DNA from: Amphiscolops sp. MND2022
Taxonomy: Eukaryota
Direction of reading: 5' to 3'
Assembly (NCBI GenBank): GCA_964187785.1
Contig: OZ076409.1
Location: 74,588,001-74,652,000, forward strand
Length of the DNA stretch: 64,000 nucleotides
A program made the position numbers and the translations under genes. Positions 1 to 64,000 of this stretch are shown here, in pieces. Positions within the stretch are counted from its first letter, which is position 1. Every line of letters begins with the position of its first letter. The notes under the pieces are model-generated. The model was not told where the DNA came from. It saw only the letters and a list, made by a program, of their open reading frames with translations, and did no database searches.

Positions 1-578
1 AAATAGCGTTTTTCCGGAGCGGGGGGGTTTCAATTTTCTAACGGTCCAGCTTATCTTTGCCATTTTTTCGAAAATGCACTCGCCTAAAGGCCTCCCCTGG
101 CCGGTTTTATTCCCAACAAAACCATTTGGCCCTAAATACGGAGTTTCAGCGTTCCAGCATTCCCGGGCGAAAAGTTGTGGGACTTAGAAAAGTTCAAAAA
201 TTTTCAAAAAAATTTTTTTCCGTTATTTGGGCCCTCAAAGTGGGGGAAAAGACCCCCCAACCAGTAAAGCAAGTGAATGCATGTGGAAAGCCCTTGTTTA
301 GACGAGAAAAATGCCGTTAAGAACGTCTTTTTATCTTAACTTGACATTGACTTTTATCGTTTTGAAGGTGACCGTTAGATACGGAAAATTGATGTTTTGA
401 GTATTTATCCCATCTGAAAGCCATTGAGATACAACATGTTTTGCTCAAAACGTATTTCATTGCAGTTTCGCTGTCCATTATCACCCTTTGGTGTCTTTTC
501 ACGTAATTTTCGTTTCTATAATAACAATTTTTTTGTGTATTTATTCATTTTTTTCTCATCAAATAACTTGAAACAGTT

Positions 579-622
579 GAGTACATTCCATCTCCCTTCC
601 CGGGGGAGATGAGAATGTACTC
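579..622 (+). other. Representative internal hairpin of the ~1.28-kb units (GAGTACATT-CCATCTCCC-loop-GGGAGATG-AG-AATGTACTC)
   Basis: Inverted repeat ~260-300 nt upstream of each unit end; variable loop; compensatory GGGTACATT/AATGTACCC variant in units 5 and 22. Confidence 0.8.
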
Positions 623-815
623 TGCTAAAGGTCAGGAACTACGGTCTATATCTTCCACAACACAAAAGGGATTGCAAATGGTTTCAGTTTGTCGCAGAAA
701 ACTTCTTTTTGCCCTCTGTGACTCGACAAAATGAACGTTTCTTACTTACTTTGAAACTCATCATACCACAACTCATCTCTAACGTCAGCGCCCCCCTACT
801 TGCATCAACGCCCAC

Positions 816-8444: not shown

Positions 8445-9726
8445 GTGGCCGTGTCTTTTCGACGTGCTTTTGCATTGAGGAGTGGGTAGGGCCCCGCGAC
8501 GACCTAGAAGAATTGGATGCTCACCGAAACGTGCAGAATTCTACGAGATCTCATAGTTTGAGCCATACGATTTTTCTGAAATTTGGCATGTGGCCTGGAA
8601 TTGGTGAGTAGGTAAAACGTGTAGGAGGTGATTTTTCCCAAATTCCACTGTGAGACGAGATATGGGCAAATAACGGTCCCAAAAATGGCAAAAATGCACT
8701 TTTTTCAACTTTGTCAGCCCATATCTCTTTTCCAGGTGCCCGTAGCGTTCCGCACGTGGACATCAATATTGCTCAGCGCTGTCGGAGGAGTGCGTGGACA
8801 AATTTTGGTTTAAATCGGACTTAAACTTGACGAGAAATTAACGGTTTTTTGGGCGTTTCCGGGGTAAATTTTTTAACGGTCCAGCTTATCTTTGCCATTT
8901 TTTCGAAACTGTACATGCCTAAAGGCCTCCCCCTGGCCGAATTTACTCCCAGCAAACCCATTTGGCCCTAAATACGGAGTTTCAGCGTTCCAGCATTCCG
9001 GGGCGGAAAGTTGTGGGACTTGGAAAAATTTCAAAATTTTTTCAAAAAATTTTTTTCCCGTTTTCCGGGCCCCCAATGAAGGGGAACGACCCCCCAACCA
9101 GTATTTTGAGTGAATTCATGTGGAACGCCCATGTTTGGCGGTGAAAAATGCCGTTTAGAACATCTTTTTATCTTAACTTGACATTGACTTATGACGTTTT
9201 GAATGTGATGTTAGGATATATGAAGCATGTTAAAAGTTGAAGTTTTGAGTCTTTATCTCATCGGAAAACCATTGAGATACAAGCATTTTTGCTAAAAACG
9301 ATTTTCATTGTAGGTTAGCAGAGTATTAGTACACTTTGATGTCATTTGAGTATTTTTTTCTTCTATATAATAACTGTTTTTATGTATTTATTCCAATTTA
9401 TCTCATCTTTTAACATCAAGCAGTTGAGTACATTTCATCTCCCTTTCGGGGGAGATGAGAATGTACTCGCTAAAAACTTAATGCTATGGCGCCAATGTTT
9501 GGATGGGAAGTTTTCTATGCTTTGAAAAAAGTTATTTTTAATTACTTGATTTTTTAAAACAATAATTAACATGAAGTACATTACTTGCTCCTACTACTAC
9601 CACCATACATCTCTAACGTCAACGCCCCCTGCTTGCATCAACGCCCCATCGTCCGTGGGCATGCCGAGGCATGCCCTTCGACGACGTATGCCAAATGCCC
9701 AGTGCCACGCAGTCTTTCCCCGCTAG
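8445..9726 (+). mobile_element. Unit 7 (1282 bp); apparently identical copy at 13343-14624, close relative at 26247-27527
   Basis: The ORF track repeats exactly at offset 4898; identity starts and stops at the CTAG|GTG junctions. Confidence 0.88.
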
Positions 9727-12271: not shown

Positions 12272-13342
12272 GTGGAATTGGGTTATGACAAACTCATTTT
12301 TCGAGGTTGGGGTAGGGCCCACAACCGAGCCCTAATTTCATTTGCTACTGTACCGAAACCCCCCCTGAAAAATCACGATCTTTTAAATGAGCCCTACGAT
12401 TTCGATGAAACTTTGCATGAGGCAAGAAAAAAAAATTCTAAGAATTTTTTCTTGCTGACACTTTTTCGAAAAAACGGTCCTTAATGGTTTTTTTGGCACT
12501 TTTTTGTTGAAATTTAGTGCATTTTGTGCATTATTCGTGAGTAACGTGAATAAAAATGAATGTGCTCAGAATTGGACCATATTATATGTGAATACTCAGC
12601 ACAGTTATGCGATTTCATTTTCATGTCGCGGCACGTCGCTCCGACTCTCGAGAGTTAGTTATGACAGGATGAAAAAATACAAATGAGTGCCAAAAAAACG
12701 AGGTAGGAAATTTTTTTTAAAATTATGTTTTCGAACAAAAATGTGAATAATTTTTTTTCACATGACAAAAAAAAGTACGAAAAAAAGTACGAAAACAAGT
12801 ACGAGAAAAAGTACGAAAAAAATAGGATAATTTTTTTTTGAAAAAAAAACAATTTTTTGGAATATTTTTTTCACCGTACAGGACCTAATTAGTACCGTAG
12901 AATTCATTTTATGCATTGCCCAGTTGCTCTTCTATTGTTTTGTAGCGCTGACAACTTATTTGAGGTTTGTGTAGCAAAGTATGTTCAGCAAAGTTTAAAG
13001 GGAGGAACCATATAGTTTATTTTAAGTCAACTCTATTATATTTCACACTGCTGTTAACCAAAATTAACTCTTGCGGTCGTCTCATGGTCCCGGAGTGGTC
13101 CATGAGACAGACGCAATGGCAAAACACAAAGGTCCAAGTGATGATTAGTCGTAGTGTCACATGTGATCCTGCATGTGACGGCTGTATATAGGTTGGAGCT
13201 GTTTTTCTTTTTCGAAACTTTCGCATTGGCAATATGTCTTTTAATGTCTTAGTTGCGATGTTATTACCTTCATCGAGTACGTTCTCCTAACACTCTTAAC
13301 CCAACTCGCTAGACTAATGGCAGTGGACGGACACGAGTCTAG
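12272..13342 (+). mobile_element. Unit 10: array-type head (~250 bp) fused to ~800 bp not found elsewhere in the window, ending in GAGTCTAG
   Basis: GTGG head with the GGGTAGGGCCC and GATCT..CGATTT motifs, then unique sequence with its own hairpins; precise CTAG|GTG junction. Confidence 0.7.
12767..12822 (+). repeat. Short tandem repeat (AAAAAAGTACGA-like x4)
   Basis: Four AAGTACGA cores at ~12-nt period. Confidence 0.8.
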
Positions 13343-16300
13343 GTGGCCGTGTCTTTTCGACGTGCTTTTGCATTGAGGAGTGGGTAGGGCCCCGCGACGA
13401 CCTAGAAGAATTGGATGCTCACCGAAACGTGCAGAATTCTACGAGATCTCATAGTTTGAGCCATACGATTTTTCTGAAATTTGGCATGTGGCCTGGAATT
13501 GGTGAGTAGGTAAAACGTGTAGGAGGTGATTTTTCCCAAATTCCACTGTGAGACGAGATATGGGCAAATAACGGTCCCAAAAATGGCAAAAATGCACTTT
13601 TTTCAACTTTGTCAGCCCATATCTCTTTTCCAGGTGCCCGTAGCGTTCCGCACGTGGACATCAATATTGCTCAGCGCTGTCGGAGGAGTGCGTGGACAAA
13701 TTTTGGTTTAAATCGGACTTAAACTTGACGAGAAATTAACGGTTTTTTGGGCGTTTCCGGGGTAAATTTTTTAACGGTCCAGCTTATCTTTGCCATTTTT
13801 TCGAAACTGTACATGCCTAAAGGCCTCCCCCTGGCCGAATTTACTCCCAGCAAACCCATTTGGCCCTAAATACGGAGTTTCAGCGTTCCAGCATTCCGGG
13901 GCGGAAAGTTGTGGGACTTGGAAAAATTTCAAAATTTTTTCAAAAAATTTTTTTCCCGTTTTCCGGGCCCCCAATGAAGGGGAACGACCCCCCAACCAGT
14001 ATTTTGAGTGAATTCATGTGGAACGCCCATGTTTGGCGGTGAAAAATGCCGTTTAGAACATCTTTTTATCTTAACTTGACATTGACTTATGACGTTTTGA
14101 ATGTGATGTTAGGATATATGAAGCATGTTAAAAGTTGAAGTTTTGAGTCTTTATCTCATCGGAAAACCATTGAGATACAAGCATTTTTGCTAAAAACGAT
14201 TTTCATTGTAGGTTAGCAGAGTATTAGTACACTTTGATGTCATTTGAGTATTTTTTTCTTCTATATAATAACTGTTTTTATGTATTTATTCCAATTTATC
14301 TCATCTTTTAACATCAAGCAGTTGAGTACATTTCATCTCCCTTTCGGGGGAGATGAGAATGTACTCGCTAAAAACTTAATGCTATGGCGCCAATGTTTGG
14401 ATGGGAAGTTTTCTATGCTTTGAAAAAAGTTATTTTTAATTACTTGATTTTTTAAAACAATAATTAACATGAAGTACATTACTTGCTCCTACTACTACCA
14501 CCATACATCTCTAACGTCAACGCCCCCTGCTTGCATCAACGCCCCATCGTCCGTGGGCATGCCGAGGCATGCCCTTCGACGACGTATGCCAAATGCCCAG
14601 TGCCACGCAGTCTTTCCCCGCTAGGTGGCCGGAAATTTTTTTTTCATCAAAATCTTTGCCATTGGGGGAGGGGCCCCGGATGGCCAGTAGTACGGGATAG
14701 CTCCCTACAGAATCCAGGCGGAAAAAACGTGATTTCGGAAACTAGCCGTCAGAATTTGCTCAAAATTTGCATACGGCTTCCTATAACAATCCTAAGAACT
14801 AATCCCTACTGGCATTTTGCCCGAAAAACGCAAAAAGTTGGTCAAAATCTCAGTTTTTTGGTCAAAAAATAGCGTTTTTTCGAAAAAAAAATTTTTCAGA
14901 GACAATTACTCGTAACTGGTTCACCCAGCGCAAAAACGCCTAGCTGATTTATTGTTAGGCACTTCATGAGGAGTGCGTATACAAATTTTCGTCCAAATCG
15001 GATAAAAGTGGATTGAGAAATAACTGAAAATTTGAGGCAATTTTTTGGAATTTTTTGAAATCCCAGTCTATCTCTGCCGTTTTTTGCCCAGATTTTTTTC
15101 CAGGACCTCTCCTAAAGGCCTCCCCTGGCCGGTTTACCTCCCAGAAAAACCATTTGGCCCTAAATACGGAGTTTCAGCGTTCTAGCATTCCCGGGCGAAA
15201 AGATGTGGGACTTAGAAAAAATTCAAAATTTTTCAAAAAATTTTTTTTGCGTTTTCCGGCCCCCCAATGAAGGGGAACGACCCCCCAACTAGGATTTTTG
15301 GTCAATCCATGTGAAAAGGCCTTGTTTAGTGGAGCAAATTGCCGTTTAGAGCGACTTTTTATCTTAACTTGACGTTGACCTCTGTCGTTTTGAATTTGAA
15401 ATTAGTATGTGTTGAGCATGTGAAAAGTTGATGATTTCAGTTGTTCTCTCGTGTTCAAGCCATTGAGATACAAGCGGTAGTGATCAAAATGTGATTTATC
15501 GCAATTTGGTTGTGCTTTTGGTGTATTTTGATTCTTTTGAATAAAAAGTTGTTCTTTATATATTTGGTGTATTGATTCAAATGAACAAGAAACAGTTGAG
15601 TACATTTCATCTCCCCCCTTGTGGGGGAGATGAGTATGTACCCGCTAAATGACACGCACAATGGCCCAATTTTACTTTTATGCGACGTTTACTAGGCTTT
15701 TGCGCAAGCCCACTAATACTTAGACTGGTTTCCTTTTCTTTTACTCCAAAATTTTCCGTACTAACCACCTTACGCACCACCAGCTCATCGTAACATCTGT
15801 AACGCCAACGCCACATACTCTCACTAACGCCCACCGTCCGTGGGCATGCCGAGGCATGCCCTTCGACGACGTATGCCAAATAGCGCCACAGGGCGCCCAA
15901 TTTTGTCTAGGTGGCCGCGTCTTTTGTCGAACTTTGACCATGGAGGCGCGGGTAGGGTCCTGCGCCGACTTAGTGCCTTTACTATGATACAAAAATAGGT
16001 ACCTGAGTAAACGATCTCGAAGATGAGCCGTCAGAAATTCCTGAAAATTTGCATGTGGCCCCCAATTGGCGAGCATATGAAAAGTGTAGGAGGTCATTTT
16101 TCCCAATTTCCACTGTGAGACGAGATAAACGCGAAAAATGAGGTAAAAAATGGACCCATTTTTGATAAATTTTGCAATATCTCGTTCCAGAGGCATCGGA
16201 GGTACCGTATACCTGACGTAGAAAATGCTCGGCATGTGAAGGGGGTTACGTGGACAAATTTTCGTCCAAATCGGATAAAAATTGACAGAGTAATAACAAA

Positions 16301-43066: not shown

Positions 43067-43070
43067 GGAT

Positions 43071-43433
43071 ATGCCTCCAAGAAGAAATCGACGTGTTCGC
43101 AACACTTGCACCCGATGCCGCGTGTTTATCCCTCAATCTTCGATTTTGTGTTCCAGTTGTGCAGCTCCCTCCGTCGAAGTAACTCATCAAAACGAAAACA
43201 GCAGTGTTTCTCTTCCTAATGAAGAAACCCCCCGAAACACAGTTCACTCTCCTCCTTGTACCATATGTGGTTTACACGAACAGTCACAAGGTCTACTTTG
43301 TTGTTTCTGCTGTCCTCTTACTTTACCCGCTTGTACAGATGAAGAATGTCAGAAATGCAGAAGAATTACCTCCTACTCTTTGAATTCCATTTCCATGGCA
43401 GAAGTAAAGCAGACCGCATTTGGTTGCCGATGA
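43071..43433 (+). CDS. N-terminal Cys-rich (CxxC, zinc-finger-like) segment of RepHel, ended by a premature TGA
   Basis: CTRC, CSSC, CTIC, CCFC, CQKC motifs. ATG lies 5 nt after a strong splice acceptor (TTTTTTTCAG, AG at 43065-43066). Same frame as the downstream long ORF. Confidence 0.7.
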   Translation: MPPRRNRRVRNTCTRCRVFIPQSSILCSSCAAPSVEVTHQNENSSVSLPNEETPRNTVHSPPCTICGLHEQSQGLLCCFCCPLTLPACTDEECQKCRRITSYSLNSISMAEVKQTAFGCR

Positions 43434-43592
43434 CCGGGAGAAACATCTGATTTTGCAAGACTGTGCAACGAGTGTACTCATTACGCAACACATGGCTATC
43501 AATCCCCATGGCGAATAGTTTGGCCTTGTGTCGTATTAGATTTCCTCCGTGGTAAATATAATGGAGTTGCGGATGGAAAACCATTCCATAAA

Positions 43593-47120: not shown

Positions 47121-50055
47121 TTCTGTTTCGTTTCTTCATTTATCGACTCTTGAAAAGTCAGAACGACCGTCTTTCATCAAACTCAGAAAAAATACAAACC
47201 CAACCCAGCCGTTACCTTTACATGTTACAAAAAGTTTCACTTTACCACTGTCGCGTCAATTCACCCAATCACAGTTGTTGGTTTTAAAAGATTCTATGAC
47301 AAGTGAGCATTCTAACTGCAAAATGACAGTTTTTAGCGGTAGGCCACCAGCGCTTTTGTGTGTTGATAACCCTCAACTGTATTTCACTTGGTTCAACAGA
47401 GTTAATATTCGGCATCCCCAGGATACATTGAATCATGATGTTAACAATTCAAAATGGATAGACCTTTTCGGACGTGCTGTACACTTGAGACGTTGCTATC
47501 TTGATGACTTTTCCACTTATGTCAACAATCTGAGAAGAGAGGGACATATCAACTTGTACCGATTCGATGAAGATACATCGATTTTGTTTCTACAAAACGA
47601 CTGTTTGGGATTGAAAACAATAGACGATTCTCCAGTTCAAGTTGTGACATCAAACATTGTGCCAAATAATCGTCGAAAATTTTTGGTGCACTTTGTTCTA
47701 TCTAACGGGAAGTTTGAGACAGAACCAGATCTATTCAATCATCCTAGCATGCTGGAGGTTTTCATCAACTGCAAGTTACTGCCATCAAAAAGTTCTTATA
47801 CACAACAAGATGCCTGTGATTTAGTAAAATTTTACGTTTTGTCGGAACTCAAATACCTTCCTGGGGCAAGCAGATCGTTCGATCGTCATTTGTTATGTTG
47901 TTACGACTTGATGACCAATCTTGTTCTTTATAACCAGATTCATTCCGAAGCTTTGCCCTCAATTCTTCATTCAGAGATAAGCGAAAACGCTGAAATTGAT
48001 TACATTTTACACATTTACGAAAAACGCGAGCGAAGTGTTCAAGGTTGCCTCTTAAATCCAGCTTTGATGCCATTACAACCACACAAAGATTCTTTCGTCG
48101 CAGCCACCCGCAGAAACCCGTTTGTGTACAATTTTCTGTTTCCTCGAGCTCCCGGACAGTCGGACGAATCAAACACTTTTCAACAACGTGTGTTCAACGA
48201 GTGCATTCAGAAATTGACTAACTTCATTGAAACAAAAGACGGTTTCATAAAACATCAGTTGTTTTTGGGGCGTCCGGGAAGCGGGAAAACACTCATCTGC
48301 ACAATGATATATCTGGAAGCTGTAGCAAAAGGCCTCAATTGTGCAGTAACTTGTCTAAGTGGAGAGCGAGCCCAACAACTCGGTGGCGAACATGTCCACA
48401 AACTATTCAAGTTCAGAGTAAACAAAATACAGAATCCCGAAGTAATGGCTTCCCAAAGTTTGAAAAGTCTTCTCAAGGATGTCACACGGTTCACCGAGCT
48501 GGAACGCCTTGATGTACTATTCATTGATGAAGTGGGCCAGCTGAATTCTGAATTGATGATAGCTATGGAAATTGTTCTACAAACTGTGAGAGACAACAAA
48601 TTGCCAATGGGAGGGATCTTTACCATCCTCACAGGAGACCCGAAGCAGTTGCGCCCTCCACAAGGATCATTGACATGGTTGTCACCGAAAATGCTGACAA
48701 ATTTCGATTTCCATTACTTTAAACACTACGTAAGAGCAAAGCCTGGATTGTTGCGAGAGATACTGACTAAAATGGACGAACTTGAAATCAGCCCAATCGA
48801 AGCATCAAATATTGCAAAAGAAATTGTAGCCAATAGCAATATCAAATCAACTTGGGACAGTTTTGGTGACAACTTTGACATGCGTGTATTCAGCACACGA
48901 GCCGCAGAGAAACAAGCTGTTACACATCATTTTGAAACAATTCTGGCTGACCACAGTTGTGAAAAGGTCGTGTTATCCGCAATTGATGAAGAGAGTTCCA
49001 CCGGTTCGTCGATTTGGCGTCCGGCGGGTGACAGCGAACAAACATTCATCGATTCCACATCCATCACTCCTCGACAACTGCTCTTGTACAAAAAAGCGCT
49101 TCTAAGATTTACAGCTAACCTCCCCAACATTCAGGCTCGACAAGGACAGTTGTGCCTAATTTTGGAATTACCAACCGAAACAACGTCTTCCCTGGAAGTT
49201 TGGATCGCACCACCAGGTTGTCGCACCGTAACAAATTTCGATGAAAATAACCTATCTACATCAGGTTGGCGCAAAGTCTCTATTTCAAAAGTGTTTACAC
49301 CTATAATGACTAACAACAACAAATTCCTAAGGAGATACTCTTTTCCTCTGAAGAATTATGTGGCATCCACTATTCACAAATGCATTGGTGACACGTTCCC
49401 AAAGATTGTTACCAAAGTTTCACTTACGGACAAACATTACAAAATTTGGGAAAAAGAGCAACTTCTTGTGTTGTTGAGTAGAGTCAGTAAGCTCGACGAC
49501 ATAACCTTCGTAGGTGAAGAACACGAAATAGAATTAACTTTAACAGCTGCCATTCAGCAAAAGTCCTGTTGGGGAACTTTCATCAATAACCTTCTAGAAA
49601 AATTGGCCTCTACTCCCTCTGACCTGACGCCGCCAACACTCAACCTCCTTTCTTCAAATGTTGTACCTTGGAACATTGTCTTACCCGAAGACAATGTAGG
49701 CTTTGTGTATCTTCTGATAAGCACGAAGATTTGGAATGTTTATTTCATTGGAGAGGCTCTGGAAATTCGGCGAGAATTGAAACTTATCAACTCTGGAAAT
49801 GGCGCATCCGAAACACGCCCAATCGAACGAAGGCCATGGGCAATCTTAGCATTTGCAACAGGTTTCAACACCGAAGATTCTTCCAGCAACAACACGCAAA
49901 GAAAATCGCTTGTATCGAAGATGAGAACGCAATTTACTTCCCTTGGATTAAACTTCACCACCGTGGATTTGTTTGAAACGTTCAAAGAATCAACGAGAAC
50001 ATATGCTGACGAACGTGATCTAAATTTGAGAGTTATCCAGTGTGGCAGTGTTTAA
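47077..50055 (+). CDS. PIF1-like SF1B helicase part of RepHel with a C-terminal GIY-YIG-like domain
   Basis: Walker A GRPGSGKT (48268-48291), Walker B LFIDEVGQL, PMGGIFTILTGDPKQLRP (motif III), FPLKNYVASTIHKCIGDT (motif V), VLLSRV (motif VI). From ~49699, GFVYLL..YFIGE..INSG..T....RPW resembles SLX1/UPF0213-type GIY-YIG. Confidence 0.9.
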   Translation: MKQFWWLLNFKYVHSSVSFLHLSTLEKSERPSFIKLRKNTNPTQPLPLHVTKSFTLPLSRQFTQSQLLVLKDSMTSEHSNCKMTVFSGRPPALLCVDNPQLYFTWFNRVNIRHPQDTLNHDVNNSKWIDLFGRAVHLRRCYLDDFSTYVNNLRREGHINLYRFDEDTSILFLQNDCLGLKTIDDSPVQVVTSNIVPNNRRKFLVHFVLSNGKFETEPDLFNHPSMLEVFINCKLLPSKSSYTQQDACDLVKFYVLSELKYLPGASRSFDRHLLCCYDLMTNLVLYNQIHSEALPSILHSEISENAEIDYILHIYEKRERSVQGCLLNPALMPLQPHKDSFVAATRRNPFVYNFLFPRAPGQSDESNTFQQRVFNECIQKLTNFIETKDGFIKHQLFLGRPGSGKTLICTMIYLEAVAKGLNCAVTCLSGERAQQLGGEHVHKLFKFRVNKIQNPEVMASQSLKSLLKDVTRFTELERLDVLFIDEVGQLNSELMIAMEIVLQTVRDNKLPMGGIFTILTGDPKQLRPPQGSLTWLSPKMLTNFDFHYFKHYVRAKPGLLREILTKMDELEISPIEASNIAKEIVANSNIKSTWDSFGDNFDMRVFSTRAAEKQAVTHHFETILADHSCEKVVLSAIDEESSTGSSIWRPAGDSEQTFIDSTSITPRQLLLYKKALLRFTANLPNIQARQGQLCLILELPTETTSSLEVWIAPPGCRTVTNFDENNLSTSGWRKVSISKVFTPIMTNNNKFLRRYSFPLKNYVASTIHKCIGDTFPKIVTKVSLTDKHYKIWEKEQLLVLLSRVSKLDDITFVGEEHEIELTLTAAIQQKSCWGTFINNLLEKLASTPSDLTPPTLNLLSSNVVPWNIVLPEDNVGFVYLLISTKIWNVYFIGEALEIRRELKLINSGNGASETRPIERRPWAILAFATGFNTEDSSSNNTQRKSLVSKMRTQFTSLGLNFTTVDLFETFKESTRTYADERDLNLRVIQCGSV

Positions 50056-50124
50056 TTCATTTGGGTTTACAAATATTACACTGTAGAAGTCTCTGAGACT
50101 GGACGATAGATGAAGCATGTGAGG

Positions 50125-50156
50125 TTGCCCCGGCCACGCAGTGAGCCGAGGGCAAG
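50125..50156 (+). other. GC-rich stem-loop ~70 nt after the RepHel stop
   Basis: TTGCCC-CGGC-CAC-GCA-GTG-A-GCCG-A-GGGCAA in an otherwise AT-rich intergenic stretch. Confidence 0.6.
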
Positions 50157-50602
50157 CTTTATTCAAAACTATAGATGAACATCTTTTTTGTTGAAATGTT
50201 CTTTGATTATATTTTGCCTTTGCTCATTTCTTCAACGTTCCTTTGTAAATATATATTGATTAAACTGTCAACCATTGATAATAATACCAGTTGACACTGA
50301 AATTGACACCAGTCATGAAAAAATAATAATTGTCTGACTGGAACAAAAAAAAGACAAAAAAACAAGATGGCAAGATTGATGAAACAGTTCAATTCTTCAA
50401 CTTCGATAATCTTTTCCTTAACATACCTTTAACATCACGTGGAGGGAAATAGAAAAACATTTCTACAGTTAATTAGTTCGAAAAAAAATTAGACAGTATT
50501 TAGACGCAGTACATCGAAAGAAATGAAAATCGGTCGCGAAACATAACGTTATTGTGTTTTTAGATAGCTTTGTCTTCAATCCAGACTGAAACAAGATTCA
50601 AA

Positions 50603-51980
50603 ATGCCCATCATTAATAAAGATTTGTCGGCAGATGAGGCAGCCACCAGAACAATCAGTAAATTAACAACATGTGAACTCGATGAAGTGATGGAATCTAA
50701 TGCAACGGATCGGAAGTACATGATTTGTACATTGCTTTACGCCAAAAAATGTGTGAAATCAGTATCGTATTTTAAACTAACGAATGGACAAAAGCAAAAA
50801 CAGGAGGCTACATTCAACCGTTTTGTCCTTCTGGGAGTGATCGGAAAAGAGAAAGTAATGGCAATATTTACCTACACCCAACTAGAAAGCGCGGAGTTGT
50901 TGCGTTACTGTTCTGCATTACAACCGGGAAATGCGTGCGCCTTAATACGCCCTAAATTCGATAACAAGTATATGGGATCATCATCCACTACCCCAATCAT
51001 ACTAACTTCTGAGCCACTTGTGCCTCTGAACATCAAGAATTACCCTGATGTCAGCTGTCCAAGAATTGTATCATCACCGGATTTTCAACATTTCTACATC
51101 AAAACGAAAGATTTGAAGCTCGATAATATAGATGCCATTGGAAACGTGTGCAATGGGACCTTCTGCGATGGTCAACCGAAGGGCGACTGTCCTTGTTTAG
51201 AGGTCGACAACCGGAAAAGCAGCTGGATCATTACTGCGGATGTGAAATGCAGTGGGTTGTATCACTCATCAAAAATACGATCAAAACGATTGATAACGGT
51301 ATTCGCTCCCAAATGTAAGTCGGCGGACCCTAACAAAAGAGAATTTGATGTCCTTGATTTGGGCGATTGTATTGAAAACTGTGTTGAAGCAGTAAATGCC
51401 AAGAATGGATGGGAAATTTTCGGTTGGGTGAAACCAAACGAATCTGCTCTAGAGTTTACAAACTATGAATGCGACCTACACATTATACATCTTCAACCTA
51501 TCGAAATTACAGATGTAGAGTCAGGTAAACCTACACTTCAAATATTTAATTTTCCAGTTTTTACTTTCTTTTTTCGCTAAAGTTCTAAATAATTTTCGAC
51601 CAAAATATGTCTAGCAGAATCAAAATATACATTTTAACAGAATATAAAACACAATTTTTAATGTTATTAACAATTGTTTTCGCAAAAGACATGAACAATA
51701 ATTTCACCTTGAACTGTTATTTTACAACTTGAGACTAAAACTTAGAGTCTTTATTTTTTCCCATCGTAATTTTTAAGATGATCGATAAGTGACAAATGAT
51801 AAATATACTTTAGATGCATACAAAGCCTTGCAGTATAAGTTGCCCGGAACGTCTGCCCCACAAGTTGAAATGCCCATCATGGCAACTACATCAGGGATAG
51901 CTTCGGTTCCAGCGACAGCTCCAGCAACACCTCCAGCAAACGCTTCCCCAGATGTACAAGCAGCATCGGTTGAACAATGA
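50603..51980 (+). CDS. Second element-borne gene of unknown function; probably two exons (50603-51524 and 51814-51980); Cys cluster; possibly an OB-fold/ssDNA-binding accessory protein
   Basis: Long ORF 50570-51580 with first ATG at 50603. Donor CAG|GTAAAC at 51524/51525, AT-rich intron, acceptor TACTTTAG at 51813 giving in-frame ...TDVES-D-AYKALQYKLP... Motif CNGTFCDGQPKGDCPC. AATAAA at 52214. Function is inference only. Confidence 0.72.
51525..51813 (+). other. Putative GT-AG intron in the second gene
   Basis: GTAAAC donor, AT-rich body with stops, TTTAG acceptor that restores the frame. An alternative AG at 51788-51789 is also in frame. Confidence 0.6.
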
Positions 51981-54900
51981 AAATCACATTATCAAATACG
52001 AAAAATACAGAAGTCAAGAGAAGTGACAATAAGAAAAAAAACATTGATAGACTTAAAAATCTCATAACTTTGTGATTAAATAATGTTATAATGTGATCAT
52101 AAAAAGATTGCAGAAAAAAATTATCTTGGAACCGGTAAAACATTATAAATATCGTACTGTTATGTTCCTTTAGTTCATATTCTTGAAATATTGTTAATTT
52201 CTTATTTCAAAGAAATAAAAATTCACTTTTTCGTTTATGAATAAAGTTTATCGTTCCCACAAGAAACTTGAATAGAGTGTTTATAGAATAAACACGTATG
52301 TTCATAGACTATTCAATATTTTAAATAGAAAAATCTGAACTAGTCAAACTACTAATCTTTTTGACTGAACTTTGCCTTCACTCTGGTATGACATTTGCTA
52401 AACGTTTGGTCCTTACAACATACACATGACTAACGTCAACGCCACATACTGTTACCAACGCCCACCGTCCGTAGGCATGCCGAGGCATGCCTTTCGACGA
52501 CGTATGTCAAATACCTTAAAACCGACGCGCACTCTCCCGCTAGGTGCCGGGATTTCTATTCGATAAAGTATGTGGCGCGCCTTGGGTAGGGTCCCTTGCG
52601 CGCTCTTGGGTATGGTGTTCACCAGCTAGGAAACAGGGGTCGATTTTTCGGGATCTCCTAAACTAGCCACACGATTTGGCTGAAATTTGGCACACGTACT
52701 CCCCTCGGCACGGTGAAGATGATTTCCTACTGACGTTTTTCCCGCAAAATTTTTTTTGTTGTCCAAAATAACGGTTTTTGGGGTAAAATTTTGAATTTTT
52801 TTTTTAAATTTTATCTTATATCTCGCCACCGGTTTACGCTAGCGCTTCAAAACCCTGCTAAAGAAAGCTTGCAAACTGTCTCAGGAATGCTGTGTGAAAA
52901 TTTCAGCTCAATCGGACTTAAACTCAGGGAGATATAGCGTTTTTCCGGAGCGGGGGGGTTTCATTTTTCTAACGGTCCAGCTTATCTTTGCCATTTTTTC
53001 AAAAATGCACTCGCCTAAAGGCCTCCCCTGGCCGGTTTTATTCCCAGCAAAACCATTTGGCCCTAAATACGGAGTTTCAGCGTTCCAGCATTCCCGGGCG
53101 AAAAGTTGTGGGACTTAGAATATTTCAAAAATTTTCAAAAAATTTTTTTTTCCGTTATTTGGGCCCCCAAAGTGGGGGAAAAGACCCCCCAACCAGTAAG
53201 GCAAGTGAATGCATGTGCAAAGCCCTTGTTTAGAGGAGAAAAATGCCGTTTAGAACGTCTTTTTATCTTGGCTCAACGTTGACTTATGACGTTTTGAAGG
53301 TGATGTTTGGAGGTGTAAAGCACGTGAATAGTAAACGTTATGAGTATATATCTGATCTGAAAGCCATTGAGATGCAATATGGTTTGCTCAAAACGTAATT
53401 CATGGCAGTTTGGCAATCAATCAACACCCTTTGTTGTCGTTTGACATACTTTTTTGTTGTTATAATAAAAAATTTTGTGTATTTATTCATTTTTTTCTCA
53501 TCAAATAACTTGAAACAGTTGAGTACATTCCATCCCCCCTTCCGGGGGAGATGAGAATGTACTCGCAAAAAGCACCGAACTACGGCCCTTACCTTCCCGA
53601 GCTACGCAGTATAAGGATTACATATTGGTTCCGACATTTTCATAGAGTTAAATCTTGGTAATCTGTCTGGATATGCAGAAAAACCAGCACGTGCTTTTTT
53701 ATACCAAGTTGCTTACAACGACAATTATTTTATATCAACGCCCCCATATTTATCAACGCCCCCCGTCCGTGGGCATGCCGAGGCATGCCCTTCGACGACG
53801 TATACCAAAATATGTTCGAGCGCGTTAGCCTAGGTGGAGGGGATTATATCACAGCTATAATGGTTTTTTCCGGAGTTTGTGGCTTTGGAAAAAACTAAAA
53901 GCGAAAATTTTGGGACCAGGGGTTAGTACCGAGTTCCGCGCGAAACCTACTTAGGAAAATGGCCAATCCTGAATTCGATCTCAAAACTGAGCCATACGAT
54001 TTGCCTGAAATTTTGCATGCGGCTTCCTCTAGCGATTCTAAGAACTTTTCCCTACTACCATTTTGCCCGGGAATTTTTTTATGTTGACTTATTCACATTT
54101 TAGGTGCCAAAAATTGCGTTTTTTCAAAAAATTTTTTTTCAAGAGCTCATATCTTGCTTCCAGGTGCTCGTAGCGGGTCGCATGTGGACGTTGATATTGC
54201 TCGGCACTTCGTAAGGAGTCCGTATACAAATTTTCGTACAGATCGGATGAAAATTGACTGAGTAATAGCCGCATATTGGACGAATTTTGTCGAAAATTTC
54301 GGTACACCTAGTCTATCTCTGCCGTTTTTTGCCCAGATTTTTCTTGAGACACTCTCCTAAAGACCTCCCCTGGCCGGTTTACCTCCCAGCAAAACCATTT
54401 GGCCCTATATACGAAGTTGCAGCGTTCTAGCATTCCCGGGCGAAAAGTTATGAGACTTAGAAAAAAAATTTTGGAAACGCAAAATGTGTAAAGTCAATTT
54501 CAGGCCTCCCAAAGTCAAGAAACTTCCACACAACTAGGATTGCAAGTGAATGCATGTGGAAAGTGCTCGAATAGGCGAGAAAAATGAGCTATTATACAAC
54601 TCTGTAGCTTAACCTGACGTTGACTTATGACATTTTTAGTGTGAGCTTGCTATGCGAGAAAAATTTTCAAAAATTGAAAATCGAAGCTAAGTCTTATCCA
54701 AAAACGTTCAGTCAACCTCAGAGCTTTTCAATTCCAGTTGTCTAATGCAGCAACACTATTTAGGGTAGTTTGAAACCATTTTTATAAGTTTTGACTCCGT
54801 CTTATCCATTCGAAACAGTTGAGTACATTCCATCTCCCCTTCGTGGGAGATGGCAATGTACTCGCAAAAAGTCAATTACTATTGCCCTTTTTAAACCTGT

Positions 54901-55136
54901 AGTAGCCCTAGAAAAGCAGTAGCGTGAGCTCCAGGCTGTTTGCAGTAACTACTAAAATTGTGACCAGAATTTGCATTCTTTTTGATTTGACATATTCTGA
55001 ACGTTTGGTCCTTACAACATTCACATGACTAACGTCAACGCCACATACTGTCACCAACGCCCACCGTCCGTAGGCATGCCGAGGCATGCCTTTCGACGAC
55101 GTATGCCAGATAACTCTAGCCACGCTGTCATACTCG

Positions 55137-57508
55137 GTGGTCGGGGTTATTTCCCAGCCAATTTTGCCGCGCGGGGAGGGACCCGTTCAGCGGCCCAGGT
55201 CATTATTTTTTTACATTAAAAAAAACGATACCCCGGAAAGCGATTTCGAAACCCACCCGTAGGATCCCTCTGAATTTTTGCATACACCTCCGTATAACAG
55301 TTCTAAGAAAAAGTCAGCAAGGGCGTTTTCAGTTCTAAACGGGGAATGTTGACCAAAAAGCGCAATTTATGTCCAAAAAAATGCAATTTTTCGACTTTTT
55401 TATTTTTGACGGCCAACAGCTCTTTTCCAGATGCCCGCCCAAGTCATAAACCGGAGAAAAGTTTTGTTGGGCACTTCGTGAAGAATCCTTAGGGTGATTT
55501 TCGTTTCAATCCTATTTCCTGACGTTGACTTATGGTTGGGTGAAAAAACGCAACATTTGTTACAAAAAGTGCTTTTGGTACTCAAGGGCCCATAACTCGT
55601 GACATAATCAATTGAGCAAGTTCGTGTATAATTACGATTTTCTTGCCTATTGATAGGAGAACAAACAAGCAAGAACAAAATTTTCTGTGGGAAGACGTCA
55701 AAAAAAGATATCAAAGGTTTTATACTCAATAAAATGGTGTTTTTCGATTATCGTGGAAAAAATGTAAAAGGGTGGCATTTTTCGGCTGTTCAAGGTAGCG
55801 GGTATTTCATTGCAGTTAATAACTCACCTCTAGTAGTCATTTACTTGGATGATTTTCAATGTTGATAAATTGCATGATAAACTTCATTTTTTGCGTCACC
55901 AATATTGACACCCACGATTTCAGTCAATTTTTTCGCGTTCACGTTTTTGAGTGGATATAACTTTTTTCCAGTGCGTTTTACGGTCATCATCCAGGAGCAC
56001 AAAATTGTTGGCCGTCTTAAGCAGAAAATATATGGTAAGTTTAGAGTCATTTGAAACGTTTTTGAAATGTCCAGAGATGCACACATTTACAGTTTTTTTG
56101 CCCACAAAACACTATTTTACGAAACCCAACACTTTTTGCCAAAAAAGTCAAACTTTGTCCACACAACTTAGATTGCAAGTGAATGCATGCGGAGAGTACT
56201 TGAAATGATGGGAAAAATGAGCTATAGAACGCTCATTTACGACAACCTGACGTGGACTTAGGATAATTTGAAAAAGTACGAAAAAAAAGAACAACGGTTC
56301 CAAAACAATCAGTTTGTAGTAAATGGCCAATAACTCCATACACAACCCTCCGCGCAAGCTAGTGTCCAAGTACGTTTTTGTTACCCGTGAACAGTGCAAC
56401 AAATAAGTAAAAGTAAAACTTTATGTAGAGAATCGTCGGAGAAAGAAATAACGGGATTTTTTATCACATTTAAGAGACAAAATTGAAAAATTAGTCTATT
56501 CCTGGCATTTTACCTAAACTTTTTCGACAGTACACATACAGGAGGTAAAATTCGTCCAATATCATGCCTAACAAAACTATTTGATCCATTGGCCGCAATT
56601 TGAGCGTTCCAATTTTCCCCAGTCATAAATTATGGGACTTCGAAAATTTTCAAAAGTTCCATTTTTCAACAAAATTTCAAATTCAGGCCTCCCAAAGGTA
56701 AGAAAGTTCCACACAACTAGGATTGCAAGTGGTTGCATGTGGAAAGTGCTCGAACCGACAAGAAAAATGGGCTTTAGAACGTCTCTCTATCGTAACCTGA
56801 CGTTGACTTATGATGTTTTGAATGTGATACTGCTACGTGCTCGAGAAGTGTAAGTGGAACATATGTCTCGTTGAATACTCATCGGAATACATTCAATGAA
56901 CCCAATCACCCTAAATTGCAGTTTCCTAGTGCAACAACGTCTGTCAAGGACCTTTTTTGATAAGAGTCGAAATTATTATTAAATTCAGTTAGCAAGAAAC
57001 ACTTGAGTACATTCTCATCTCTCCCCATCGGGGGAGATGAGAATGTACTTGCTAAAACGGCTTCTTTGTTTTCATGCGATGGATTCTGTGCCTTGCCACA
57101 CATATAACTTTGTTTTGTGTGACCTTGCGTATATACTTTGACTTGTCATAATAAATTTCTTCTCGTAAATTTACGTAAATCAACAATGCATCTACAATGC
57201 ACCTTCAACGTCAAAGCCAAATAAATATAGCTGGCCACCGTCCGTAGGCAGAGCAAGGCATGCTTTTTGACGACGTATGCCGAAACACAAACGCGAACAA
57301 AACTGCTGAAAATCAGAAACAGTGACCAACAATTTTGACTGTTTGACATATGGTAGGTTTTTATATGGAACTTACTGATATTTCACAACATTTCAGCTGA
57401 CGCCCACCTACCACTATCAACGCGCACCGTCAGTGGGCATGCCGAGGCATGCCCTTCGACGACGTATGGCTAATACCTTCAGCGACGCCCCCGCGCTCCC
57501 CCGTCTAG
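55137..57508 (+). mobile_element. Unit 35: long composite unit (2372 bp) with a unique internal segment and a duplicated 3' end
   Basis: Unique ~55520-56140. The CACACAACT..GATTGCAAGTG block occurs twice (~56160, ~56710). Degenerate palindrome at ~57243-57279. The 3' half is related to unit 2. Confidence 0.72.
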
Positions 57509-58779: not shown

Positions 58780-60168
58780 GTGGTTGGGGCGGTCCCCAGA
58801 ACGCACAAGGAGGCGCGGGGAGGGTCCTGCGCCGACGTAGAATAATTTCATATAATACTAGTATCCTACATGGGTGTTTTAGAGGCGATTTTGGAATCTA
58901 ACCGTAGGATTTGGATAATTTTTTGCATGCGGCCATAACTCGAAATTCTAAGAACTTTTTCCTACCGTCATATTCCCCGCAAATTGTTTTTTGTTGACTT
59001 ATGGCCGAAAAACCGGAAATAACGTCCTTGTTAGACGTTATATCCGAAGTGTCGTCATAACTTTTTTCCAGGGCATGCTAGCGTTCTCGTTCACTTTTAC
59101 ACTTAGTTGCAGCATCTCAAAATACAACTGGTGGAAAATTTTGGTTGCATTCGGATCACCCCCCACCGAGATAGAAGGGTTCCCCCCTCCAGTTTTACCA
59201 CCCAAATTTGCAAAATAGCCAATTTTGAGCATGAAGCCGAGGATTTAGCGTACCCGCACCCTCCTGATGTTTTGTTGTACGTATTGGGGTCAATCTGACG
59301 ACATGTGTGGTTTTCACCCCCAACCCCCCCTTGGACCGGAAATGACACTTTTTTGTGTTTTTTGGCAGAATTTAGCCTTTTTCATTATTAGGCAGTCGTT
59401 TTAGGGACTCCTAGCAGGATATCGAAATTGAAATACAACCTGATCACAACCCAGTGACAATATGTTGGCCACTTGGAGGTATCATCATGACCGGAAGTGG
59501 GGTCAGCCCCCCTTTTTGTGACCGCTTTTTGACCTTGTGCACCAAAATGCCAACATCTTGAGGCCTAATGAGGCATTCAAATCTGTACAAAGATAAAATG
59601 TTAGACAACCGAAGTCCCGGAAGATCTTTAGCATATACCGGAAGTTACCCCCCATGACCGGAAGTTACCCAATGTGACCGGAAATGGTCCAAAAATTAAT
59701 GTAAAGTTGAATTTTTCACTATTTCAAGACCACTTAATTGAAACTTTTCAATCTCAAAACTAGCGTACTGGCTTGTTTTGCTGAATTTATGAAAATTGAT
59801 GAGCTCTATCGCCCCCGATAGCCTTCGAAGTTGACCTTGCGTCAACTTTGGAGGCTATCGATAAAGAAAAATGAACAACAAAGTACATTGTTGCTCTCGT
59901 TTTTTTCCCGTTGTTTTTCCTCAAACATTCTTGAGACATATACATGGCCGTTAGTTGAAATCAATATTTAGCCCATGTTATAGCTGGAGCAGCGAAGCGT
60001 TACACAGACTAGTGTGGTTTTGAAATCACACTATTTAAATTAACAACTGACCGTCTTAGTCAACTCCACACATTCATACCAACGCCCACCGTCTGTGGGC
60101 ATGCCGAGGCATGCCCTTCGACGACGTATGACGAATCCACTCCAACGACACCCGCAGTCCTCAGCTAG
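58780..60168 (+). mobile_element. Unit 37 (1389 bp, divergent 1.4-kb family); near-identical copy from 62732 to the window end
   Basis: Head GTGGTTGGGGCGG; ORF track repeats at offset 3952; different upstream neighbours. Confidence 0.85.
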
Positions 60169-63100
60169 GTGGCCGCGTCGTTTTGATGGACTTTTATCCT
60201 TGAGGCGCGGGTAGGGTCCTGCGCCGAGCTGGTGAAAATATACTACGTCCAAATCGCCCGTTCCGGAAACGATCTCAAAACTGGCCCGTACGATTTTCCT
60301 GAAACTTTGCATGTGGCCCCCAATTGGCGAGCAATGAAAAAGTGTAGGAGGCCATTTTTCCCAAATTCCACTGTGAGAGGAGATATATGAAAAAAACGGA
60401 CCCCAAAATGACGAAATTTTCACTTTTTGACCAAAAATGTGACATTATCTCCTCAGACAAGGCTCGGAGCAAAATTTGTCAGAACCCAAACCTGCAGCAG
60501 ACTGTTAGAGCAGTGCACACAGTAAGTTTGAAGGAAATCGGATAATCACATGTTGAGAAATTGACGATTTTCCGACAATTTTTTTTGCATTTGCAGTCTA
60601 TCTCTGCCGTTTTTTGCCCAAAATTTTTTCGAGACCCTCTCCTAAAGACCTCCCCTGGCCGGTTTACCTCCCAAAAAAACCATTTGGCCCTAAATACGAA
60701 GTTTCAGCGTTTTAGCATTCCCCAGTAAAAAGTTATGGGACTTAGAACTTTTTCAAAAACTTTCAAAATTTTTCTAAAAAAGTTCAGGCCGCCCAAAGTG
60801 AAGAAACTTCCACACAACTAGTATTACAAGTGAATGCATGTGGAAAGCCCTGCACTTGACGAGAAAAATGCCGTTTAGAACGTCTTTTTATCTTAACTTG
60901 ATGTTGACTTATGATCTTTTGAGTAGCGTATAACACGTGATCACAGTAGTGAAGATCCTAATTTTCAATAATTTTCGAACAATAACGCATGAAAAGAACC
61001 TGGAAAAGGTTCCGATGGGTCAGTTGGGATGTCTGAATCAAGTGTACATTCCCGTAGTGTATAGCGGATGTGTTTGGGACTTATTAGAAATTGTGATATA
61101 TTTTATACAAGTCTTTGTTTCTCTTAGAATCTTATGCAGTTGAGTACATTCCATCTCCCTCTCAGGGGAGATGTGAATGTACGTTTGCCAAATGCCTTGT
61201 AAAGCTGACAATTTTGATGGTATAAAATGATTAAACAAGTGTGACTAGCGTTTGCCGAATCACTGCAGCAAAAAATCTTGAAACTTTAGTGAGATTGAAT
61301 GCTTTTTGTCTCTAGTGTTTTTTCTTGTGTAGCCGACTTCCACATCCAAATATCAACGCCCACCGTCCGTGGGCATGCCGAGGCATGCCCTTCGACGACG
61401 TATGCCAAATACCATATGCCACGCAGTCTTTCCCCGCTAGGTGCCCTAATCCATCGATTTGCTCAACACTTCGAGGGCAGGGTAGGGTCCCTTGCCCGAG
61501 CCAAAACGTCGGATACTTACGACAGACAACTTAAGGCGGATGCTAAAGCGAGACCCCGATTTTCTAAACGGCCCATCAGATTTTGCTCAAATTTTGCATA
61601 CGGCTTCCTATAACAATCCTAAGAACTAATCCCTACTGGCATTTTGCCCGGAAAACGCAAAAAGTTGGTCAAAATCTTAATTTTTTGGTCAAAAAATGTC
61701 GTTTTTTCGAAAATTTTTTTTTCAAGAGCTCATATCTCGCTTCCAGGTGCTCGGAGCGGGTCGCATGTGGACGTCGATATTGCTGGGCACTTCGTAAGAA
61801 GTCCGTAGACAAATTTTCGTTCAGATCGGATGAAAATTGACTGAGTTATAACATATTTAGAAACGCATTTTTTCGCAAATTTCTGGAATCCCAGTCTATC
61901 TCTGCCGTTTTTTGCCCAGATTTTTTTCCAGGACCTCTCCTAAAGGCCTCCCCTGGCCGGTTTACCTCCCAGAGAAACCATTTGGCCCTTTTGCCGCAGT
62001 TTCAGCGTTCCAGGATTTCTTGAGTAAAAGATAAATGTCTTAGAATTTTTTCGAAAAATTTTCAAATTTTTTTTTTCATTTTCAGGCCTCCCAAAGTCAA
62101 GAAACGTCCACACAACTAGTATTGCAAGTGGATGCATGTGGAAAGTGCTCGAATAGACGAGAAAAATGAGCTATTATAAACCTCTGTAGCTTAACCTGAC
62201 GTTGACTTATGACAATTTTAGTGTGAGCTTCCTATGTGAGAAAAAATTTCAAAAATTGAAAATCGAAGTTAAGTCTCATCCAAAACTCATCGGAATACGT
62301 TCAATCCATCCCAAAGCGGTTTGTTCCCAGTTGTAGAGTGCAGCAACACCATTCAAGGTCATTTGACCCACTTTAATAGGTTTTGACTTTGTCTTATCCA
62401 TCCGAAAATTCGAAACAGTTAAGTACATTCCATCTCCCCTCCGTGGGAGATGGTAATGTACTCGCAAAAAGCCAAGTACTACCGCCCTATTCTACCCGTA
62501 GTGGTGCTAGAAATGCAGTAGCGTGAGCTCCAGGTTGTTTGCAGTAGTCTCTATGTGTTATAATTATATTTTTCATAGCTAAAAATCTTACTAAACGTGA
62601 TAAAAAAAATTACATCACTCAAAATTTTTTCAAATATTATTATATGTCCCCAATTGACGCACGTCAACTATTTCGCTACAACCACCCTACCACCCGGCCC
62701 CTCGTATCTTTGTTCAACCGTACACGTCTAGGTGGTTGGGGCGGTCCCCAGAACGCACAAGGAGGCGCGGGGAGGGTCCTGCGCCGACGTAGAATAATTT
62801 CATATAATACTAGTATCCTACATGGGTGTTTTAGAAGCGATTTTGGAATCTAACCGTAGGATTTGGATAATTTTTTGCATGCGGCCATAACTCGAAATTC
62901 TAAGAACTTTTTCCTACTGTCATTTTCCCCGCAAATTGTTTTTTGTTGACTTATGGCCGAAAAACCGGAAATAACGTCCTTTTTAGACGTTATATCCGAA
63001 GTGTCGTCATAACTTTTTTCCAGGGCATGCTAGCGTTCTCGTTCACTTTTACACTTAGTTGCAGCATCTCAAAATACAACTGGTGGAAAATTTTGGTTGC

Positions 63101-64000
63101 ATTCGGATCACCCCCCACCGAGATAGAAGGGTTCCCCCCTCCAGTTTTACCCCCCAAATTTGCAAAATAGCCAAATTTGAGCATGAAGCCGAGGATTTAG
63201 CGTACCCGCACTCTCCTGATGTTTTGTTGTACGTATTGAGGTCAATCTGACGACATGTGTGGTTTTCACCCCCAACTCCCCCCTTGGACCGGAAATGACA
63301 CTTTTTTGTGTTTTTTGGCAGAATTTAGCCTTTTTCATTATTAGGCAGTCGTTTTAGGGACTCCTAGCAGGATATCGAAATTGAAATACAACCTGATCAC
63401 AACCCAGTGACAACATGTTGGCCACTTGGAGGTATCATCATGACCGGAAGTGGGGTCAACCCCCCCTTTTTGTGACCGCTTTTTGACCTTGTGCACCAAA
63501 ATGCCAACATCTTGAGGCCTAATGAGGCATTCAAATCTGTACAAAGATAAAATGTTAGACAACCGAAGTCCCGGAAGATCTTTAGCATATACCGGAAGTT
63601 ACCCCCCATGACCGGAAGTTACCCAATGTGACCGGAAATGGTCCAAAAATTAATGTAAAGTTGAATTTTTCACTATTTCAAGACCACTTAATTGAAACTT
63701 TTCAATCTCAAAACTAGCGTACTGGCTTGTTTTGCTGAATTTATGGAAATTGATGAGCTCTATCGCCCCCGATAGCCTTCGAAGTTGACCTTGCGTCAAC
63801 TTTGGAGGCTATCGATAAAGAAAAATGAACAACAAAGTACATTGTTGCTCTCGTTTTTCTCCCGTTGTTTTTCCTCAAACATTCTTGAGACATATACATG
63901 GCCGTTAGTTGATATCAATATTTAGCCCATGTTATAGCTGGAGCAGCGAAGCGTTACACAGACTAGTGTGGTTTTGAAATCACACTATTTGAATTAACGA

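Follow-up and report, generated by a model that had tools for sequence, protein, structure and literature searches.

The 64,000-nucleotide stretch of Amphiscolops sp. MND2022 analysed here (the window; C1:74,588,001-74,652,000 of a 1.07-Gb assembly, with coordinates being window positions unless prefixed by C) lies within an array of Helitron-like rolling-circle elements joined head to tail. On the + strand, CTAGGTG occurs 38 times, mostly at a spacing of 1.07-1.41 kb and each time with a recurrent tail 25-60 nt ahead; on the - strand it occurs twice. Together with a 39th junction, CTCG^GTG at 55136/55137 (the caret marks a junction or an insertion point), the + strand sites divide the window into 40 co-oriented units, in agreement with an earlier note on the same DNA (the original prediction), which had counted CTAG^GTG at 38 of 39 junctions. 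The units form 17 clusters at 80% global identity, consistent with the at least 8 families that had been proposed. From the sequence comparisons described below, we consider it quite probable that the preference for such junctions is a property of the transposase itself, and this is the best reading of the array.

The unit at 26247-27527 is 98.6% identical to the twin units at 8445 and 13343, and the upstream tail and the downstream head are different for each of the three copies, as expected from the claim that one unit occurs with different neighbours. With 0-1 mismatches, unit 8445-9726 was also found in four copies at C1:73.02, 73.83 and 75.71 Mb and C7:16.21 Mb. The unit at 12272 had no full-length relative among the 145 delimited units compared, which make up the detailed set (263 kb, the window plus 100 kb per side). 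The short units of the window contain no open reading frame (ORF) of at least 150 aa except one 199-aa antisense frame that spans a junction, and a comparison of the window with Rfam gave zero matches. No tyrosine-recombinase integrase was matched in Pfam among the three long ORFs of the window. The term "integron-like cassette" is thus an analogy and finds no support in its functional sense, the units being non-coding, with no integrase or cargo found. Unit lengths are tightly grouped (about 1070, 1270-1310, 1390-1410, 1970-2190, and 3070 bp), even between families just 65-80% alike. In some 2.2-2.4-kb units, the tail motif is already found once inside the unit, ~190 nt before the true end, with no CTAG after it (internal copies at window 57266 and 57455, and likewise at -32932 and 106034).

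Table 1. Features of the window (positions of the motifs marked "hand-converted" were converted by hand)
Feature	Position	Strand	Remark
Window part of the ~6.03-Mb co-oriented rolling-circle element array	1..64000	+	
Unit starts, part 1	<1, 889, 3075, 4474, 5876, 7179, 8445, 9727, 10995, 12272	+	
Unit starts, part 2	13343, 14625, 15911, 17183, 18454, 19863, 21130, 22420, 23706, 24979	+	
Unit starts, part 3	26247, 27528, 28830, 30117, 31386, 32676, 33966, 35233, 36624, 37896	+	
Unit starts, part 4	39209, 40497, 52544, 53834, 55137, 57509, 58780, 60169, 61441, 62732	+	
Last unit of the window	62732..64122	+	ends beyond the window edge
Unit	8445..9726	+	100% identical to unit 13343..14624
Unit	13343..14624	+	twin of 8445..9726, flanked by two unrelated neighbours
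Unit, 1071 bp	12272..13342	+	GTG start, head hairpin, CTAG end, own tail class
Variant junction CTCG^GTG	55133..55139	+	
Autonomous-type unit, 12,047 bp	40497..52543	+	GTG...CTAG
Head hairpin, example	40528..40555	+	
RepHel-GIY-YIG gene, broken	43071..50055	+	stop 43431-43433, frameshift near 47080
HUH motif (HIH), Rep domain	46389..46397	+	H1108/H1110 invariant, 42 homologues; hand-converted
Two-tyrosine motif YIAKY	46902..46916	+	Y1279, K1282, Y1283 invariant; hand-converted
Walker A, Pif1-like helicase	48268..48288	+	hand-converted
C-terminal GIY-YIG-like domain	49699..49924	+	motif residues altered in this lineage, intact-looking in relatives
Second ORF, 325 aa	50603..51580	+	homologues in three other autonomous units
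Commonest tail palindrome, GGCATGCC-GA-GGCATGCC, example	52473..52492	+	~50 nt ahead of terminal CTAG

The array runs on through all of the 100 kb examined on either side of the window. Ten 3-kb probes of its interior, from 71.5 to 76.2 Mb on C1, all fell inside + strand units (nine showed junctions, and one was settled by a wider stretch), and none of ten probes outside its limits was in array. The borders read ...AATCTAG^GTG, on the host side, at C1:70,454,838 and ...CTAG^GTCAAT at C1:76,487,313, giving a span of 6.03 Mb and, by extrapolation from the local density, ~3,300 units; between the probed points, the mega-array would appear to be continuous. Two array units are split by foreign insertions of 20 kb and 12 kb (window coordinates -72873 to -51385 and 119571 to 133209), and the 5' host flank (L167) resembles a reverse-transcriptase fragment of a long interspersed nuclear element, with a YADD motif recognised by eye.

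Across the genome, 4,391 copies of the commonest tail motif were counted, 3,431 of them on the + and 960 on the - strand. Three small contigs hold further arrays, as do C1, C2, C3, C4, C5, C6, C7, C8, and C10. A general role in centromeres seems unlikely, since this strand skew (3431 vs 960) and the places where arrays were encountered suggest a single dominant array and not one on every chromosome. A second large array lies near the C2 contig end, at about 102.1-103.9 Mb; its units lie on the - strand at 102.1-102.4 Mb but on the + strand from 102.8 Mb onward, and at another locus (L005) two arrays face each other over a 200-N gap. For one sampled tail motif, the next letters were GTG 616 times and A, T, or C 20 times, in a count that omitted cases with G not continuing as TG. 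For one head family, 44 of 45 copies stand directly behind CTNG; 31 upstream flanks comprised 25 tails of another element and 6 stretches of host DNA (5 solos and 1 array start), and the remaining 14 copies have positions within array coordinates. Arrays are the rule for these elements, and dispersed copies are the minority. The original prediction had set its proposal against two other outcomes, the first being that most copies are dispersed at unrelated A^T targets; most copies instead lie in arrays, and the target is CTNG.

Every element starts with GTG, which was seen in all array units and solos examined, and ends with CTNG (CTAG in most units, CTGG in some, and CTCG or CTTG in a few). 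When the flanks of solo copies and array starts were read, the host 5' flank was CTNG in 14 of 16, compared to a background of 1.1% in flanking DNA (CTAG 8, CTTG 2, CTCG 2, CTGG 2, GTCC 1, and TTCA 1; one CTGG case is unproven as host, and the TTCA case is a decayed copy). On the other side, the second base after the last tail was T in 20 of 20 selected sites where the tail is followed by A, C, or T, a set that includes two pairs with common flanks and some decayed fragments. Nine further last-tail flanks also had T second, with two GA exceptions. Insertion thus occurs right 3' of CTNG and nearly always ahead of (A/G/T)T, a target rule that we write as CTNG^DT.

A solo copy within a repeat resembling a short interspersed nuclear element (SINE) was compared with 14 empty paralogous copies, and in all 14 no base had been gained or lost, a duplication test that rests on this one insertion site. 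The empty sites read CTAG^ATCTG (one AACTG and one ATCAG); because they already hold CTAG, the CTAG before the head is derived from the target. An abundant tRNA-like SINE, with 663 candidates at first look, contains the CTAG^AT site used as target. Junctions between elements carry no spacer, and since the elements land after CTNG and end in CTNG, new borders and element-element junctions are again targets. The target thus equals the elements' own terminus, and CTAG^GT is itself a target. The predicted integration into existing junctions is upheld for junctions, but not as the sole target, since plain host CTNG^(A/G/T)T sites are also used. At two loci, L089 and L127, tail and head are 16 and 13 nt apart, with the spacer ending in CTGG in each, and at L127 a 164-bp tail-only piece sits at the junction; these arrangements may be near-miss insertions beside a resident end. 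The very large size of the repeat region might raise the suspicion of an assembly artefact, an explanation that we regard as negligible, because the units are heterogeneous, the array borders and solos follow one junction rule, and the empty paralogues match exactly.

Near-identical units mostly have unrelated neighbours. Of the 74 unit pairs with an identity of 97% or more, 69 have no neighbour in common (9 of 11 at 99%). Past the junction, the identity of twin units ends within 9 nt on the upstream side in 65 of 68 comparisons and within 7 nt on the downstream side in 59 of 65, the pair comparisons not being independent of one another. Identity therefore stops at the junction, as had been claimed, and the second outcome against which the original prediction was set, a unit order fully explained by multi-unit segmental duplications with breakpoints away from CTAGGTG, was not seen. 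Ordered doublets recur no more than in shuffles, and six copies of one unit (0-1 differences) are spread over 2.7 Mb and on C7. The same figures bear on the possibility, proposed for tandem Helitrons of plants and bats, that arrays are concatemers made by rolling-circle replication or grow when multi-unit blocks cross over unequally. One three-unit block duplication and a few same-family runs were seen, and tandem Helitron arrays are reported (PMC5876387, PMC5148889, PMC12001565); concatemers, however, predict identical neighbours, whereas just 1 adjacency in 144 reached at least 97% identity, unrelated tail classes alternate, and the twin pairs mostly lack a common neighbour. As the main route, this origin is largely refuted, and we hold it to be very unlikely.

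Direct comparison of two blocks shows the gain of a single unit. The order A-X-B-C at window coordinates -15114 to -9967 stands against A-B-C at -4246 to -388; the two copies of A, B, and C have 3, 2, and 1 differences, respectively (99.8-99.9% alike), and X has an identical counterpart at a distance of 77 kb. A and X have tails of different, non-homologous classes, and the base at head position 6 is not the same in X as in B, so that the insertion required a cut at the junction. In combination with the CTNG rule, this case is what the original prediction led one to expect, namely that single units move and that the junction regenerates the target.

The 263 kb contain 391 internal same-strand CTNG-DT sites, compared to 144 junctions, and no array unit nested inside another was found among the odd-sized units checked; the short motif is therefore not sufficient for targeting. 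It could nevertheless be that only CTNG^DT is recognised and that arrays dominate through selection on dispersed copies, chromatin, or local re-insertion. The existence of young solos behind CTNG in host DNA (in one family, 5 of its 45 copies), a family composition that is regional along the array, and the two cases with a 13-16 nt spacer between tail and head (L089 and L127) would fit such a scheme. Selection, however, should not discriminate between internal sites and junctions, yet the units are at junctions, and identical copies are found as far as 2.7 Mb from each other and also on a second chromosome. We consider this scheme quite unlikely and retain junction preference of the transposase as the reading to be developed below.

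The ends of the elements were then compared for shared features. A head hairpin with a GG(T/G)AGGG(T/G/C)C core, ~30-60 nt from the 5' end, is present in 130 of the 145 array units, with stems that vary around the G-rich core, which itself starts about 37-53 nt into the unit, and 31 of 36 distinct heads fold more stably than flank shuffles (mean z -2.0). The tails belong to at least five unrelated classes. Because the head hairpin is the only feature common to all tail classes and transposase lineages, it is the likeliest docking signal, and we propose that the head serves in this role.

The transposase is encoded by the unit at 40497-52543, in which Pfam detects Helitron_like_N and PIF1 domains, consistent with the reported HUH Rep-helicase (RepHel) in a unit with the same ends. 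The first 795 bp of this unit are 93-95% identical to the non-autonomous units 19863 and 33966. Its RepHel is ~91% identical to an intact 2328-aa protein, P0001, encoded letter for letter within the same mega-array (L142, C1:74.33 Mb). The array thus holds its own mobiliser, as predicted, in the form of intact copies elsewhere in the array, whereas the window copy is broken. The intact L142 protein matches PF14214 and PF05970 above cut-off; no Pfam match to GIY-YIG was obtained for the window or L142 protein. All of the 42 long homologues keep the HxH, YxxKY, and helicase motifs, and about half have a precomputed GIY-YIG domain; two of the 42 bear hagfish and Hyalella names. A metagenome contig (L132) encodes a 2581-aa clade member with a clear GIY-YIG domain and has short direct repeats upstream.

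Ten further intact RepHel units, with ORFs of 2369-2603 aa, were found on six chromosomes, all among array units, and nine have a GTG head at a CTNG junction within the stretch examined. These RepHels are ~30% identical to P0001 and occupy three further branches. The idea of one mobilising system therefore gives way to several such lineages in the arrays, to which recombination adds chimeras. Autonomous units of another lineage (L111-L122 and L127-L128) contain an extra ORF of ~220 aa with a GASN motif, presumably reminiscent of SGNH hydrolases, and L119 has an additional 292-aa frame upstream of RepHel.

In quick, unrooted trees with just two HLE1 rows (L140/L141), the RepHel group is split from the HLE1 and HLE2 Helitrons of the same genome with a support (SH-aLRT) of 99 in the Rep tree, where row P0030 was cut at a wrong motif, and 100 in the helicase tree. 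In neither tree does it fall with the HLE2 rows of this genome, but since both trees are unrooted it may still nest there on a long branch. Own-genome HLE1 matches Helraiser at E 8.6e-193, and P0001 gave no Helraiser match in the PDB. DUF6570 is present in the own-genome L134-L137 and absent from L142, L132, P0017, and P0031. The genome also contains canonical HLE1 and DUF6570-bearing HLE2 Helitrons (L041-L070 and L134-L141), some with long frames. A search with the Rep region returned 107 protein clusters at 1e-30; the number rose to 335 at 1e-10 and to 622 at 0.001, the loosest set also taking in other Helitrons. In viral contigs, none of 117 pattern matches was confirmed as a relative, nor was any of 32 matches in prokaryote genome contigs, where the single-protein query reaches close relatives only; metagenome contigs yielded 3 loci with no element ends or arrays, which the contigs may stop short of.

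For the second ORF, no Pfam match and no meaningful PDB sequence match were obtained. Feature matches to POT1/CTC1/MEIOB and fold matches to Teb1 and RPA, the latter from a poor model (pLDDT 47, best Z 7.8), suggest that it is probably a single-strand DNA-binding protein with an oligonucleotide/oligosaccharide-binding fold.

These results are best explained by a Helitron-like rolling-circle group with an IS91-like target logic, to which both the autonomous and the non-autonomous elements belong. By analogy with HUH-Y2 chemistry, RepHel would nick at CTNG^GTG and peel one strand off; peeling would stop at the terminal CTNG and probably yield a circle. RepHel would then nick a resident CTNG^GTG junction as though it were an origin, and two joints would follow, one between the incoming 5' G and the CTNG-3'OH set free by the nick, the other between the terminal CTNG of the incoming unit and the resident G, so that one unit is placed precisely between two old units. 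Four nucleotides by themselves cannot account for the arrays, so that genuine element ends must be favoured by the enzyme, probably via the conserved head hairpin. Rare use of plain host CTNG^DT sites would seed new arrays, and homologous recombination afterwards would generate chimeras, swapped terminal modules, and occasional block duplications.

Several observations weigh against junction targeting as the whole explanation. A loose nearest-neighbour screen flagged 45 of 122 units as possible chimeras, the last 40 nt differ in 14 of 76 near-identical pairs, and 12 terminal modules are each found on two to five body families. Same-family adjacencies number 31 at the 80% level, compared to 12.6 in global and 22.6 in local shuffles, an excess that is not significant against local shuffles at the 90% level. 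Four of six identical copies of one unit stand behind a tail of the same subfamily, which homologous integration explains as well, and purifying selection on dispersed copies could inflate the array share. The target rule has its exceptions (GTCC and TTCA upstream, and GA twice downstream). The head-motif pattern fails in 15 of 145 units, including one family clearly without the motif, and fixed-register pairing outside the core is weak, with just two fixed pair positions consistently paired.

Part of this evidence, namely the adjacency excess, the four same-subfamily placements, the swapped terminal modules, and the chimeric units, would also be expected if RepHel circles entered arrays mainly via host homologous recombination with a resident relative, with CTNG targeting only seeding them. 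Growth by recombination, however, predicts the same terminal module upstream of twin units, which was not observed, the shared stretch being mostly 4-5 nt. In A-X-B-C, the A tail is non-homologous and X and B retain their own head position 6 base, and 113 of 144 adjacencies unite different families at the 80% level. We consider recombination unlikely as the main route of entry. Homologous recombination does contribute to the arrays, and perhaps homology-assisted insertion too.

To place the elements, we compared them with known systems as these are described in the cited papers. Canonical Helitrons start with TC and insert at A^T, and HLE2 insert at T^T (PMC11417382). The array elements resemble HLE1 (PMC4778049, PMC5876387, PMC11417382) in a HUH-Y2 Rep fused to a Pif1 helicase, the absence of target duplication, many non-autonomous derivatives, a 3' hairpin with a CTRR-type end (palindrome and CTAG in most units), and a probable single-strand DNA-binding gene downstream; precise end-to-end circles are documented in these sources for Helraiser. 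They differ in starting with GTG rather than TC, in the target CTNG^DT rather than A^T, in a RepHel that bears a C-terminal GIY-YIG domain and groups apart from own-genome HLE1, and in that most copies lie in mixed arrays. With HLE2 (Helitron2/Helentron, FoHeli), they share RepHel, a long ORF, hairpins near the ends, and reported self-insertions (PMC11417382, PMC5148889). In contrast, their RepHel has no DUF6570 match, their target is not T^T, and the FoHeli self-insertions are described as nested or rare (PMC5148889), whereas here the arrays are end to end on a megabase scale. Short asymmetric terminal inverted repeats of the HLE2 type were not obvious in the element ends, for which no systematic search was made.

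The IS91 family (IS91, IS801, IS1294, IS1294b) has the targets CTTG, GTTC, GTCC, CTCG, and CTGG and a related terminal tetranucleotide, and shares with the array elements Y2 HUH rolling-circle transposition, no duplication, and a tetranucleotide target with T second that resembles the terminal cleavage site (PMC13181058). CTTG, CTCG, CTGG, and GTCC were all seen here too. The IS91 family, however, is bacterial and without a fused helicase, whereas the array RepHel has the Pif1 fusion, and the available text of PMC13181058 describes no such mixed arrays. No IS91-type Pfam match was obtained for the window ORFs and intact RepHels, nor any prokaryote relative in the scans run.

Adjacent Helitrons with perfect head-to-tail junctions are known: a maize r1 pair was interpreted as insertion beside a resident element (PMC2267711), Xenopus Helitrons form tandems of 2-7 copies (PMC12001565), and bat and plant tandem arrays are cited in PMC5876387 and PMC11934779. 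All of these consist of two copies or of runs within one family and have been regarded as exceptions or as concatemers, whereas here stacking is the rule, families and transposase lineages are mixed, and the array reaches ~6 Mb. Compared by description, Paramecium Helitrons form a third HLE clade, and the proposed target is the telomeric repeat that flanks each copy (PMC13085455); they resemble the array elements, which likewise appear to fall outside HLE1 and HLE2, in oriented, sequence-targeted insertion and in clustering, and GIY-YIG is unmentioned in the main text of that paper. Replitron is a Y1 Rep without helicase and with short direct terminal repeats (PMC10288648), whereas the array RepHel is Y2 with a helicase. 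R1 arrays, like those described here, grew by repeated insertion at a regenerated site, but by other chemistry, and R1 and P-element tandems retain the duplicated target between copies (10.1101/158386).

No telomeric repeats were seen at the array junctions examined. Integrons and the telomeric HeT-A/TART/TAHRE elements also form ordered, co-oriented, heterogeneous arrays via repeated insertion at a regenerated site; integrons use a tyrosine recombinase and their cassettes carry genes, and HeT-A/TART/TAHRE use reverse transcription. On sequence grounds, we place the array elements in the Helitron superfamily, where they do not fit HLE1 and, on most counts, do not fit HLE2, and not with integrons. 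The accessible literature contained no GTG...CTAG Helitron group, CTNG target, or mixed megabase arrays, although supplements, the HELIANO unclassified set, or Repbase/Dfam could hold them; the self-targeting described there is limited to the occasional pair of elements or to tandems of one family.

Target choice and joining are the least understood step of eukaryotic rolling-circle transposition. In this system, one short sequence serves as target, as element end, and as circle junction, so that target selection is directly testable with oligonucleotides, and intact transposases and thousands of natural insertions are available for this purpose. The findings tie eukaryotic Helitrons to the IS91 target rule, show how a transposon can give rise to a heterogeneous array of several megabases in a way outside satellite models, point to a Helitron group that TC...CTRR-based finders would overlook, and suggest an integrase that regenerates its own landing site for repeated, oriented stacking of cargo. 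A broader proposal, which is possible but which we advance with some doubt, is that a widespread, undescribed clade of RepHel-GIY-YIG Helitrons uses the head hairpin and CTNG^GT as an attachment site, with a docking code shared among ~30%-identical lineages, and builds integron-like megabase arrays in many eukaryotes. If this were true, the transposase would be a natural enzyme for scarless, oriented, self-regenerating DNA stacking, and the arrays would be a layered record of transposition history, possibly also a silencing or trap locus.

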